The notes under the pieces were generated by a model. That model was not told the DNA's origin, made no database searches, and worked only from the letters and a program-made list of their open reading frames with translations. Of a DNA stretch of 64,000 nucleotides, positions 2,936 to 57,272 are shown one piece after another (the first letter of the stretch is position 1; every line of letters begins with the position of its first letter). The position numbers were made by a program, and so were the translations under genes. The DNA is from Eledone cirrhosa (taxonomy: Eukaryota). The stretch covers positions 312,542,001-312,606,000 of the forward strand of contig OZ024742.1 in the NCBI GenBank assembly GCA_964016885.1, read 5' to 3'.

Positions 2936-3036
2936 TTACATTTATTGAGGTGTGATGCGTTTCACGATTGATCAGCTCAAGGTTCAATCTGTATTGATCA
3001 GCCCCAACTCTGGAATTAAAAGCTCGTCGGACTTCT
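2936..3036 (-). ncRNA. Degenerate hammerhead-like element, family A
   Basis: Minus strand CCGACGA-(~60 nt)-GAAACGCATCACACCTC-AATAAA; homologous to 8192-8290. Confidence 0.4.
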
Positions 3037-4519
3037 ATTATTGTATCTACATATGAATATATACACTTTGATTACCTGTACAGGCAATATTCATTAGCAT
3101 GCTGTTGACGTGTATGTACATTGGGGGGGGGGGGGGGGGCACTGTATATATATACAATGTTTAACACAACTAAACCCTTTAAGGTTACATCATACGTATG
3201 CTTATATATATGTATATATATATATGTATCTTACATCATATCTTGTCCTGTTTCCATTTTATTGTTAGCTGTTCGTGTAGTCGCTTTGCTGTCCTAGTCA
3301 AAAGACACTCCCTGTCTCTACATTGTGTTTTTACTTTTATGCAGCTTCCTGTGACTTGTTCAAGCTGTCATGCAACCGTGGCACATTATGCAATAACACC
3401 CATTATGCACAAAATTGCATTGACCAAGGGTGGTTGAGAAGGAACTTAGATGTTCTTGTTCATTCTGGGTTTTTTTATATGTGCAAATTTGCTGCATGCG
3501 CGCACGCACACACACATTAAGTATTGTTATCAGCACACGTACACACACGCAAGATAATAGAATACTGTGTCAGAGCATGAATTGAACAGACTGCATGTGC
3601 ATTATATATTATAATGTACTTTCATAAACATGTGCTCATACAAATACATATGCACCATCATTCATGCACACAACAGAACTTAAATGCAAGTACTAACATT
3701 CATTCATATACAGCAATGCATTCATATGCGCACACACACAGAGAAATACAATCACGTACATGTTCACATGTATCCATATGCATGCAAAAATATACTGACA
3801 CAAATATAAGACTAAGTTCCATGTATAAATACACACACAAATACAGCAATTCATTCAAAATCACAGAGAGAGAGAGAGAAGTATAATCATATACATGCAC
3901 ACATAAATTAAAGTCGCACAAATGCAGCCACATGAATGTAAAAATATACTCCACAAATACACACACAGACACACACCAAATAGATTCATTCATAAAACAC
4001 AAACAAACAGTGCAATTCATTCTTGTCCACACTCAAATTCACACATACACACATGAATACACACAGTGAGAAATACAATCATATGCATGTACATGCAAAT
4101 TAAAATCATACAAATGCAGCAACACCGATTCAAAAACATACAAATACATAACCATGCACACACACACACATATATACGTAGATACACATACAGAAAGTGT
4201 GATTGAATAGTTGTTAGCTTGAGATAATAATAAGATGACAATAACATCTAGCTGAGTGTTGTCCCAACTGTCATAGACAGACCAACCAACATATCAACTG
4301 TTCTGTAGATGTCCATCAGCAAAGCTGCATGAAGTACACAGCATACTCCACCAAGGGACTCATTCAGGACGCTGTTATATGTTTACACAATACTCACTCA
4401 TTATCAGGCTTTCTAAAAACATCTACATTGACTAAAACAATAGTCATTATGATAGGGTGGTGGTGGGGGGGTAGTGGTAGTAGTAGTAGTGATGGCGGTG
4501 GTGATAATGATAATGGTAA

Positions 4520-4614
4520 TGATGGTGGTGTTGGTTTTGATGAAGGTGTTTGATGGTGGTGTTGGTTTTGATGAAGGTGTTTGATGGTGGTGTTGGTTTT
4601 GATGAAGGTGTTTG
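4520..4614. repeat. 31-bp tandem repeat x3 within a GGT/GAT low-complexity tract
   Basis: TGATGGTGGTGTTGGTTTTGATGAAGGTGTT three times. Confidence 0.9.
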
Positions 4615-5585
4615 TTAGTGGTGTTAGGTGATGATGATGATGATGATGGCGTTTGTTAGTGATAGTAGTGGTGATGGTGTTAGGTGGTGACAGTACTGTT
4701 TGTTAAAATTCATAATGATGGTGATGACAATAGTGATGGCCAGTAGTAGTAGAGTTAGTGATAGTAGTGACAATTAAAAGGACTGATAATTGTAAGTGGA
4801 GTTGCTGCAGATAGTTTTGATGGTGGTAATAATGGTGGTGGTGTGCAATGTGGTGAGTGTAATAATGGTGGTGGTGTGCAATGTGTAGTAATGGTGGTGG
4901 TGGTGGTGGTGGTGGTGACAAACAACACCAATACACAAAGCACAGGAAAGTGTCATGGCTAAGTGTGGGTTAACAGAAATATTAGACTACTATACACATG
5001 ATTTCAAATCTATTGAATGTAATCCTTTGTTCTTATACAGGGAAAATTTTATGTAAGAACTTTTATTAACTTGTACAGCAAACACCAGCTTAATAATTGA
5101 TTGAGATGAAAGAATGGAATGTAAAATAAGAAAATATTTTTTTTTAATGGAAAGGGAGGGGAAAGGCAAGGGTTAGTGTCATGGAAGATTTTTTTAATTC
5201 TTTTTCTATTAAATTGTTTTTACTATTATAAACATCAATTTACTACTGTAAATAAATTCTATTTCATATATGATTGATTATTTCCAATATTATTTCAAAA
5301 TCATAGGCAGTGTTTTTCATTAAAAAATATGGTAATGAAAGGGTTAATGAGAGCAAAGTCAGACCTGATAGGATTTGAAGAAAAATTGTACTACGCTTAC
5401 ACTAGACTGTTTGTCATCTCTCAACATTGATATATTTATTGAATATAAGTGAGAAACCTATTTGAGCCATGCCTACAGAATTAACCTTTCCATTTCTATA
5501 TCTCTAATGACAGACACTACAAATAATTTCGAAATAATCGAGAATTTAGTAATATAACTAACTTCAGTTTTTAGATAAATATAAA

Positions 5586-5801
5586 CACTTTAGCATTTAC
5601 ATTACTCTATATTTACTATTGTATTTTCATGGTAAACATTATTTCACATAAATATCTCACATAATATCGAATCTATGAGATTTTGATATTTATGTTGAGA
5701 ATAATACCTTAACACCAGTATGGGTGGCCAGTTATGGTCGGTTTTAACAGAAAGTGGTGAGAGAATTCTGGCCAGATACAGCCGGTTTAAATGCTAAAGG
5801 G
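5586..5801. mobile_element. MITE family P1 (piggyBac-type ends)
   Basis: CACTTTAGCATTTA...TAAATGCTAAAGGG termini; homologous to 61582-61788. Confidence 0.75.
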
Positions 5802-6226
5802 CTAAAATAAACAGTTTTATATTATGAAATCAGGGACAGTTTCGAGTGATTTGTGTGATTCTTTTTTTTATCACCCCACAAACAAAAAGAGGGGAGTCGT
5901 TATAGATGTCAAAATATTGAAATATTCAAGAAATTTGGGATAGTTCTGTGATCCATTGAAAAGTGTATAATGACCCCAGTAACTAAAGAGCAGAGAATTT
6001 CAGTAATTAAGCTAACATAATAATTCAAACATACCAGTTGAAGAGTGTATAATTTAGTTAAGGTGATGTTTTTTTTTTAAGTGTTGATCTGGCTCTATGA
6101 AACAAAATCAACCATTCATTTTAACAGGGTCCTACTTAATTTAAGACCTTCCAACCTTTTTATGTTATAAATACCATCTTAGTAATGAAATAATAATTTA
6201 GTAAATCCTTCCAAATTCTTCATTAA

Positions 6227-54806: not shown

Positions 54807-54834
54807 TTTTATATATGTGTGTATGTGTGCGTGA

Positions 54835-55490
54835 AATTCATTGCTCCGCCTGGCTCCATGCCTTGTCCTCCTTCTTCACTGGCACGCAGCTAGACAACAA
54901 TAGCCTGCGCTTAGGCGTTTCCTTGAGGCTCGGCCTCCGGATCTGCGAGCCATACCATTGTTGCTGCGGATCCACTGTGGACCCTTTCAGCCTCCACCCG
55001 CTTTTCTGTTGCCACAGTGCCGGCTGCCTTCCACGCCATGCTGCCCTCGACGAGGCCATAAAGCATGGCTTGGGTGCTGCAGGCTTCCCTTCCCAGCTAG
55101 AGCCGGTGGGGCTGGACCAAGGGGACGGCAAAAGGCTAGATGACATGACCATCTTCCCGTTACGCGGTAGCAAACCCCTCGTCTGGGATGCCACTTACAC
55201 CGACACTTTTTGCAGCTGCAACCTGGTGCAGTCTGCGACCAACTCAGGTTCTGCTGCATGTCAGGCTGAGCAGGCTAAACTCCACATATACCGGTCGCTC
55301 TCCGACAGGTTTGCGGTTGTACCCCTGGCAGTGGAGACTTCTGGTGTCCTCGGCCCTAAGGCTACCTCCCTACTCACCATTATAGGCGCTGAGCTGGCCA
55401 GCCGCAGGTGTGAGCTCCGCGAGTTGGAGTAGCTTTTCCAGCACGTCTCCCTTGCCATCTCCGGGGAAACGCCTTCTCCATTCTGACTGC
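54835..55490 (+). mobile_element. CRE-clade non-LTR retrotransposon C-terminus (zinc knuckle + restriction-like endonuclease), degenerate
   Basis: AWL..LRLG..CxCG..H..C..RH..EP..DGKRLDD (RPDG-like)..VWDAT..VPLAVETSGVLG. Confidence 0.85.
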
Positions 55491-55544
55491 CGGGACGGGA
55501 GGGGGGGGGGGGCATCGAGTATCATTCCATATTTAATTATGGTC

Positions 55545-55890
55545 GGTATATGTATGTTTATGTTTTGGATGTTGACGAAGACGTAAATGAGGTAACGAAG
55601 ACGTCACTTGAAATAGTTTTCCTTAGAATGTCTTTCATGTGCCTTTTAATTTTACTGAAAATTGTCGCCATGATTTCTACGGCGTATTTATCCTCACTTT
55701 GTTTCCGTTCATCGCCAAGGAACGTCTTCACGAACCAAAGTATCGTCTTCCTGTTTTCCTTCGGTTGTAACGTTTTTCTAAATATTTCATTCTGCGTCCA
55801 CAAGATTGATTTTTTTTTTTTCAGAAGATCCCGTTAAGGGCGAAAGCAACGATTCTTTGCTTAAACTTTAATCTGTTATTTTAATAAATA
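55545..55890 (+). mobile_element. Family I second copy
   Basis: Matches 53220-53385; CAGAAGA-TCCC/GGGC-GAAA-GCAA..TTGC-TT-AAAC at 55819-55866. Confidence 0.75.
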
Positions 55891-57106
55891 AATAAATAAA
55901 TAAATATATATATATATATATATATATAATGTATAATTACAATACAATATAATGAGGTAATTATATTGTATTGTTTATTATACATTAAATTTAGCTCTGT
56001 AACTTACATAGAGCACTCTTCACTCCTATGACTCTTTCAATTTTCAATGAAAACTTCAATACTTATATATATATATATATATATATATATAGATATTTAA
56101 TTTATAATATATATACTCTATCTTCTTGCAATTTCAAGTGTTAAACTAATATATTCCTTCCATGTACTGTGCCGTTTTGTTTTGTTATTTTTCTTATTTC
56201 TGTTTGCCTTTTAGATACACACACACACGTGTGTGTGTGTGTGTGTGTGTGTGTGTGGTGTGTGTGGTGTGTGTGGTGTGTGTGGTGTGTGTGTGTGTGT
56301 GTGTGTGTGTGTGTGGTGTGTGTGGTGTGTGTGGTGTGTGTGGAAAAAAAAAGAAATTTTAGCTGCCCTCCTACATGGTTGAATCTCATAGGTTTCTCAG
56401 ATGTTTTAATAATAGGGCCCTAGTCTTGTGTATGGGTGTGTGTGTGTATTATTTAATTGATTGAGAGAAATGTTGGTGTTCCATGAGAGATGGACAAATA
56501 GATATTACACACTGAAACTTATATTAATAGACTTGTAATATTACAAACACGATATAATTATAATCCTCATTTGTTTTAAATTGTGTGGTACTTATACAAA
56601 ATAATAAAATAAATGCTAGTTTTGAAAATAAACATACATATTAAGTAAATAGAATATAGCTATTAACTTAAAATAAGATTAAATAAACAAACTCCTCACT
56701 TGTATATTTGATATGTTATCAATAAAAACTCTAGCAATCTGATAATGGAATGAGGAGATGAAATGTTCACTACAGAAGTTAAATACTCAAATTATTATAT
56801 AAATAAAAAATATATAGATAGATAAATATGAAAAACAAATAACGTTATAATTCACTGCAGCTGCATTTTGCTTAAACCTATATATGCATAGTTAGTTCAT
56901 TTGCTAAAATGAAAGGGTTCAAGGAAAACATTACTTCATACAAATGCTATAAGCATTTACTGCCCATTCACAGTCTCCCAGAGTATATTATATTATATTA
57001 CATTTATGTGCAAAATGGCATGCCAGGTGGCTGAAGAAATCTAAAGTTTCAGCAACCGTGTGATGTAACTGTTTTTCTGTGTGCATATATATATGTGTGT
57101 GTGTGT

Positions 57107-57272
57107 TAGGTAATTCCGAAGGAAAAGCAAAGGAAAAAAGAGTGCTCTATGTATAGAACAGAGCTATTTAATTAGAAAGTGAACAACACAAAATATAACT
57201 ACTCCATTACCAAAGGTTTCTGGATCCCAGACAATATTAATATATGTCTGGATCGGTCATCAGACAGAGATT
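57107..57272 (-). mobile_element. Family D-related hammerhead element
   Basis: Minus HHR 57202-57269 CTCTGT-CTGATGA-(GATCCAGACA/TGTCTGGGATC)-GAAA-CCTTTGG-TA-ATGGAG; 3' AGCTCTGT..ATAGAGCACTC. Confidence 0.8.

Follow-up and report, generated by a model that had tools for sequence, protein, structure and literature searches.

A (TA)n-rich region of the Eledone cirrhosa genome containing probable 3' ends of Penelope-like elements from about ten hammerhead-bearing families

Penelope-like elements (PLEs) of the Hydra clade are characterized, in the sections of Craig (2021; PMC8557442) devoted to them, by the motifs RW[KR], DKT, CxCX5C, CxxC, and CxH, and the elements tabulated there include Hydra-1_Obim from Octopus bimaculoides, which carries a hammerhead ribozyme and prefers (TA)n as target; target duplications are described as unreadable within TA repeats. 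For a Poseidon PLE studied in vitro, the relevant parts of Frangieh (2024; PMC11167929) report that the reverse transcriptase (RT) starts at two sites flanking the tail, that both strands are nicked, and that insertion does not require catalysis by the hammerhead. The role of the hammerhead in PLEs is treated as an open question in the corresponding passages of both sources. Here, a stretch of 64,000 nucleotides from the cephalopod Eledone cirrhosa (contig OZ024742.1, positions 312,542,001–312,606,000; hereafter the window) was analysed, which is part of an AT-rich animal genome of 3.0 Gb and for which an original prediction had proposed about nine families of hammerhead-bearing elements in (TA)n arrays. 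These elements, assigned here to families F1 to F10, very probably represent the 3' ends, with their hammerheads, of endonuclease-positive (EN+) PLEs from about ten families. Most of these families belong to the Hydra clade; the elements have their ends on (TA)n and likely inserted themselves.

A type I hammerhead descriptor (CUGANGA, stem II, GAAA, stem III, NUH, and a stem I of at least 4 bp) matched the window 11 times, in each case at one of the 20 sites of the original prediction (29933+, 30691-, 32883-, 32933+, 33926+, 34194-, 34719+, 36040-, 38743-, 38957+, and 47682-; signs denote strands). Control sequences obtained by di- to tetranucleotide shuffling, globally or in local blocks (5 sets of 100), contained on average 0.01–0.05 matches, with a maximum of one in any of the 500 shuffles. 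The descriptor had been relaxed after the sites had been read, by allowing one mismatch at the base of stem II and setting no minimum for the stem III loop, and the stricter initial version with a perfect stem II base recovered only seven sites. When variant cores and a 3-bp stem I were permitted in addition, 29782-, 53314+, and 55819+ passed as well, together with two matches at other sites that are probably due to chance. The remaining six of the 20 sites fail individually, yet belong to hammerhead-bearing families: stem III is mutated in 23103+, which also carries a short deletion, GAAA is replaced by GAAG in 29125-, the base of stem II contains two mismatches in 57202-, stem III of 32131+ comprises only 2 bp, and two decayed copies, 2936- and 8192+, come from a family with the core CCGACGA. 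At the family level the type I core is present in F1 to F7, in F7 with a 2-bp stem III. As had been proposed, stem sequences vary while pairing is kept: the F3 subfamilies differ by the paired change from GCTTC/GAAGC to GATTC/GAATC, and TTTCATT/AATGAAA alternates with TTCCGTT/AATGGAA in F2. The view that these shapes are mere chance folds in AT-rich repeats could draw on an Rfam scan of the window, in which none of 114 matches was a hammerhead, and on stem III, which forms no stable hairpin alone in six of eight folded representatives; it is palindromic in F1, F4, F5, F6, and F9, nearly palindromic in F2, and able to base-pair with another copy. Both the shuffle counts and the covariation refute chance folding, and position and shape of the folds agree with published Hydra hammerheads, which leaves this explanation extremely improbable.

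The concentration of the elements in the window, also part of the original prediction, was borne out by nine exact matches to family patterns versus 1.3 expected from the genome counts. The (TA)n content is 13.5% in the window versus 1.5% in each 10-kb flank, and no hammerhead match was found in either of these TA-poor flanks. In the densest part (29029–34015), F1, F2b, F3, F7, F10, and a short interspersed element (SINE) are inserted in an F2 3' untranslated region (UTR). This part reads as a single two-armed F2 insertion with nested insertions (Table 1), the inverted short arm likely belonging to the same insertion as the long arm, and nesting within this microsatellite-rich UTR is the likely cause of the concentration. 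The elements had been described as non-coding and 150–500 bp long, which needs correction in two places: the F2 insertion measures about 5 kb and includes the last codons (about 45) of its frame at 31635–31775, followed by the microsatellite-rich 3' UTR with its nested insertions, and another insertion carries the first codons (about 29) of its own frame.

Searches of the window with PLE proteins (tblastn) found neither an RT nor a GIY-YIG core, as anticipated. In other copies in the genome, by contrast with what mobilization in trans of a non-autonomous set would imply, eight of the nine families initially recognized continue upstream into RT and/or GIY-YIG frames on the same strand, which establishes the PLE link that the original prediction had put forward as a check; the gap between hammerhead copy and frame is a 3' UTR of 0.2–2 kb. 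F4 lies 380–408 nt downstream of the stop codon of an RT and GIY-YIG frame in the fetched loci L042, L043, L046, L053 (twice), and L167. Further upstream regions were chosen on purpose for long inverted pairs, so that their frame counts are not genome-wide fractions: a Hydra-type frame was present in seven of eight such regions for F1, including an intact frame of 821 amino acids (L334), and a PLE frame in four of five for F6, in all six for F7, and in seven of twelve for F8. Among loci selected by protein, an F8 hammerhead was located downstream in 30 of 30. F2 runs into the nuclease end in L161, L215, and L216, nuclease fragments accompany F3 in L151 and L152, and a nuclease-end frame was found for F5 in L159. 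Links of F5 to the frame of L160/L212 and of F6 to that of L052 were rejected, both frames being from other families.

Six of the eight linked families show Hydra-clade motifs and two are of Neptune type. The F8 frames contain the full Hydra motif set of Craig (2021), with RWR for RWK besides DKT, CxCX5C, CxxC, and CxH; the F1 frame has RWT, DKT, and CxCX5C, the F6 frame RWK and CxCX5C, and the partial frames of F2, F3, F5, and F10 contain the Hydra linker only. An assignment of the Hydra-type frames as Nematis-like was dropped on these published motifs. The frames of F4 and F7 carry a CX2-5CxxC linker before the C-terminal GIY-YIG domain, which suggests affiliation with the Neptune clade, Nematis being a possible alternative. 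In Pfam searches, the F4 and F7 parents matched RVT_1 (under its curated cut-off) and GIY-YIG; the Hydra-type RTs gave no match, and a large repeat class may thus be mislabelled in such genomes. The predicted structural model of an intact F8 frame (predicted local distance difference test score 91.7) had telomerase RT 3du5 as its best structural match (E 6.7e-08, template modelling score 0.34). A profile search of solved structures returned weak RT matches only (E 0.026), and the F8 profile matched a Neptune-type set, YIG motif included, with E 4e-18. A same-strand hammerhead ahead of the frame, forming a pseudo-long terminal repeat (pseudo-LTR), was found in seven of 13 intact F8 loci and also in L208 and L342. 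The F1 protein has 68 relatives with 31–39% identity, mostly about 700 amino acids long and encoded on contigs of 2–4 kb; one of them, labelled as a GATA zinc finger protein of Argonauta, is probably a mislabelled Hydra-type PLE.

Copy numbers were determined as exact matches to family patterns of 25–27 nt, both arms of a pair being counted, and amount to 23,296 for F8, 21,512 for F1, 7,316 for F7, 6,280 for F6, and 2,405 for F3. The anatomy of insertions was analysed in 150 loci selected by sequence pattern. Consistent with the proposed targeting of microsatellites, the 3' end lies on a TA run in 135 of these loci (background 9–20%), and F1, F3, F6, and F8 together have (TA)n ends in 107 of 120. 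A bimodal distribution of 3' ends, with 53–96 nt between the two positions, was seen in every one of the five families tested. Inverted termini had likewise been expected, and an inverted partner is located within 1 kb in 65 of the 150 loci; a second copy on the same strand occurs within this distance in two, which represent one pair. In the close inverted pairs that were read, the tail is usually confined to one arm, while its partner ends at the inner 3' end. Non-LTR retrozymes, which consist of units repeated head to tail, release circular RNAs by self-cleavage, and had been named beside PLEs in the original prediction, would be compatible with the type I hammerheads, the sizes of 150–450 bp, and the PLE origin. 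However, the neighbours are inverted and not tandem, and the elements end at two fixed points and not at the cleavage site. The frequent (TA)n ends and the 65 inverted versus two same-strand partners therefore indicate that the elements are not retrozymes, an identity that appears very improbable.

The fold-back junctions cluster at short self-complementary words, yet differ letter by letter between copies, and therefore arose separately. F1 and F6 invert at CATATG, and the first 100 F3 matches include 19 pairs with only 4–21 nt between the cores. Coupling of the inversion to the hammerhead boundary was considered and discarded; it fits F3 and F8, whereas F1, F5, and F6 invert 55–115 nt upstream. 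This clustering of inversion points, the very common occurrence of short fold-back stubs, and the internal deletion in one window copy might suggest that the stubs are non-autonomous elements, transcribed and copied in trans by PLE proteins. Against this speak the differences among junction sequences, the absence of the window deletion junction from all fetched loci, and the natural upstream UTR and frame of eight families. An origin of the stubs as such non-autonomous elements is thus regarded as improbable, and the short copies are most plausibly 5'-truncated products of the coding elements themselves.

For such coding elements, insertion would proceed by target-primed reverse transcription carried out by the element's own RT-GIY-YIG protein and would usually halt early. 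The nuclease presumably nicks both strands of the TA repeat; one complementary DNA (cDNA) would then start at the full 3' end and a second one from an internal site 53–96 nt upstream, and these two start sites would give one arm with and one arm without a tail. The two truncated arms would then be joined head to head, often at self-complementary words such as AGCT or CATATG. Each insertion would supply a TA-rich UTR and flanks that accept further insertions, leading to a nested cluster. Where stem III is palindromic (F1, F4, F5, F6, and F9), the hammerhead would cut only as a dimer or with the help of protein; hammerhead cutting is likely not needed for insertion. The insertion anatomy observed here agrees with the results of Frangieh (2024) on the Poseidon element.

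Two families deviate from the U at core position 4, although all three stems are present in both. The F8 core reads CAGAAGA (U4A), with A at this position in 95 of the first 100 pattern matches; of the five matches with T, four overlap a match on the opposite strand and the sequence of the remaining one shows a fold-back, which identifies all five as junction products. The A is also found in 30 of 30 loci selected by protein and in all 13 hammerheads beside intact F8 frames (709–717 codons). In F9, C occupies position 4 (core CCGACGA) in 23 of 25 copies. Substitution of U4 by A is expected to weaken hammerhead cleavage, and its fixation in the abundant F8 would likely weaken self-cutting. The U4C exchange is known from a viroid and had lowered activity in vitro, according to the part of Perreault (2011) that deals with it. 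No report of a natural U4A hammerhead core was found in a literature search. A proliferative advantage of families with a non-canonical core was not supported, since the canonical F1 is as abundant as F8. Elsewhere in the genome, several Neptune-type families (L039, L040, L054, L056, and L057) appear to use U3-A8 cores, and at least 15 further hammerhead types were encountered in the fetched loci. One locus (L357:3269-4394), of a family not seen in the window, contains three same-strand hammerheads 469 bp apart and an inverted copy; this array was the nearest thing to a retrozyme-like tandem encountered.

The tails of the Hydra-type families share a hairpin composed of RCTC, a variable helix, a 2-nt UN bulge, GAGY, and RCY. 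With the anchors fixed only, a 2-nt bulge gave the most pairs in nine of ten window representatives and a tie in the remaining one. Seven or more distinct sequences occur in the inner helix, with the outer pair alternating between A-U and G-C. No such hairpin followed the F4 hammerhead (0 of 14) or any of three further types of hammerhead (0 of 21, 0 of 17, and 0 of 12). The frequency of the hairpin compared with shuffles (15 versus 0.13) is a circular test, because the motif was derived from the same data. By eye, the hairpin was recognized in the published consensus sequences of Hydra-2_Amil and Hydra-1_Ajap and approximately in Hydra-1_Crog, and in three others the sequence shown stops short of its position. 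No description of the motif was found in a literature search. The hairpin revealed a tenth family, F10, which the original prediction, with a count that was otherwise about right, had overlooked; a Hydra-type frame predicted upstream of F10 was found in two of four regions fetched. Longer F10 copies (L354 and L355) have a U3-A8 core and a stem II of about 60 nt, and the copies in the window are folded back inside stem II and have lost the core. The bulged tail hairpin is likely the binding site of the PLE protein in the Hydra families. A more far-reaching scenario, tentative and with somewhat less than even chances, is that Hydra PLEs radiated into many high-copy families using a two-part 3' RNA signal, in which a hammerhead fold, maybe non-catalytic, acts together with the clade-wide hairpin (shared with coral and sea-cucumber Hydra elements) that would dock the telomerase-like RT and set the two start sites. 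The F8 family, with more than 23,000 matches and intact frames after fixation of U4A, is offered in favour of a fold without catalysis.

Several points weigh against the interpretation of the elements as self-inserted 3' ends of PLEs. Some of the short copies may have been re-copied in trans. The 150 loci are not independent, because both arms of some insertions were included. The frame link of F5 stems from one locus, those of F2 and F3 are nuclease-end fragments, F9 showed an RT fragment without nuclease in one of seven upstream regions, and F2c was not among the copies traced upstream. Clades were called from motifs alone. Finally, the majority F8 tail has two inner pairs followed by a mismatch, with none of 48 passing as the hairpin, and the F9 tail has the hairpin anchors only.

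Table 1. Hammerhead-related elements and the large (TA)n array in the window.
Feature	Position	Strand	Details
F9 copy	2899..3063	-	decayed type I hammerhead; family core CCGACGA (U4C), stem II of about 60 nt, palindromic stem III, GUC site
F9 copy, decayed	8170..8321	+	ends on TA
F10 fold-back stub, Hydra-type PLE	18061..18261	+	inverted within stem II, core lost; tail hairpin at 18191
F10 fold-back stub	22088..22278	-	
F1 (Hydra-type) 3' end with short inverted arm	22993..23293	+	decayed hammerhead, core 23111
Further F10 pieces	23939-24134, 29634-29713, 30940-30986, 31859-31907		
F2 (Hydra-type) long arm	29029..31751	-	core 29178 (GAAG), tail hairpin 29089
F2b subfamily fold-back pair	29751..30095	+	cores 29834 (-, short arm) and 29940 (+, long arm); tail hairpin 30034
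Orphan F1 tail	30128..30212	+	
F1 short arm	30660..30821	-	core 30752; stops at internal 3' end
F2 inverted short arm	31950..34015	+	core 33933; no tail; nested F7, F3, tRNA-like SINE
F7 (Neptune-type linker) 3' end	32070..32374	+	minimal hammerhead, core 32135, 2-bp stem III
F3 (Hydra-type) fold-back	32795..32994	-	long arm core 32926 (-), tail hairpin 32857; short arm core 32938 (+)
F4 (Neptune-type) 3' end	34054..34248	-	core 34227, palindromic stem III, CUU site
F5 (Hydra-type) fold-back	34511..34914	+	cores 34727 (+) and 34607 (-, mutated); tail hairpin 34831; adjoins large TA array
(TA)n array, 6 kb	34915..40904	no strand	holds F1 and F5b insertions; more TA arrays up to 48251
F1 long arm	35916..36248	-	core 36102, tail hairpin 35997; inverted arm deleted
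F5b subfamily fold-back pair	38692..39148	+	cores 38790 (-) and 38965 (+); tail hairpin 39068
F6 (Hydra-type) 3' end	47533..47865	-	core 47731, tail hairpin 47625, short inverted arm
F8 (Hydra-type)	52966..53474	+	inverted arm; first codons (about 29) of frame (53112-53198); core CAGAAGA (U4A) 53319
F8 3' end	55698..55887	+	core CAGAAGA 55822; stops at internal 3' end
F2c, relative of F2	57106..57272	-	core 57263, tail hairpin 57164

Beyond these elements, tails or tail hairpins without an adjoining hammerhead body are located at 8144, 30128–30212, 31991, and 55994; the feature at 31991 is a constant component of the F2 3' UTR and perhaps a captured tail. At 53101–53198, the start of the F8 frame is joined straight to the F8 3' UTR, and since this junction occurs in no fetched locus it is probably a one-off template switch. 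Copies of a tRNA-like SINE lie at 28017–28340, 33370–33700, and 57304–57620 (28 bits with the Rfam tRNA model, slightly below the cut-off), and a second SINE-like repeat is present in about 15 copies (e.g., 25767–25950 and 29375–29559). A 94-bp piece at 31754–31847 recurs beside F8 in L208 and near the ends of RTE-like frames in other loci, and is probably the 3' end of a long interspersed element. Two minisatellites consist of 11 units of 48 bp with SINE-like sequence (10385–10931) and eight units of 37 bp (41409–41719).

The elements are best regarded as new families of known PLE clades and neither as retrozymes nor as a separate class mobilized in trans, and the cluster itself as ordinary PLE debris. 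The new details are the fixed U4A core of F8 and the hairpin common to the Hydra tails. The genome provides a natural test pair: F1 combines 21,512 matches with a canonical core and one intact frame, and F8 has the U4A core, 23,296 matches, and 13 or more intact frames. The tail hairpin is a concrete candidate for an RNA signal read by a telomerase-like RT. With non-LTR retrozymes, as presented in the sections compared (Cervera and de la Pena, 2020, PMC7229834; Li et al., 2026, preprint), the elements share the type I hammerhead, small size, and PLE ancestry, but they form no head-to-tail arrays and their coding parents are continuous with the copies. The minimal hammerheads in PLE pseudo-LTRs described by Cervera and de la Pena (2014; PMC4209133) are similar, in the parts of that survey considered, in being of type I with a palindromic stem III of dimer-type design, in the many families per genome, in the occurrence of U3-A8 cores, and in their mostly single arrangement or opposite-strand pairing at 100–700 bp, ascribed to truncated PLEs; stems I and II are longer in several of the present families, and fixed U4A and U4C cores distinguish F8 and F9. 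The Anolis Poseidon PLE, in the excerpts of Frangieh (2024) concerned, likewise has two 3' ends around an optional tail, AT-rich targets, and a hammerhead upstream of the tail. It belongs to a different clade, however, its tail measures 30–40 bp compared to 53–96 nt here, and its start region, an AC-rich stem loop, lies within the frame, whereas the tail is 3' of the frame in the elements described here. The main text of an Octopus vulgaris repeat annotation, in the portions compared, mentions neither ribozymes nor Hydra. The closest agreement is with the Hydra PLEs as portrayed in the corresponding passages of Craig (2021), which share the C-terminal nuclease, the RWK-like, DKT, and CxCX5C motifs, insertion on (TA)n, a hammerhead close to the 3' end in which the base of stem II is unpaired or U-U and stem III is nearly palindromic, and inverted 5'-truncated copies. 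Compared to these elements, every tabulated hammerhead of which reads CTGA, F8 has its U4A core, and the tail hairpin common to the families analysed here is not mentioned in the passages on Hydra. The present families furthermore reach thousands to tens of thousands of copies each, have 3' UTRs of 0.9–2 kb or more and tails of 65–96 nt, and comprise at least seven of Hydra type within a single window, compared to one listed for Octopus.

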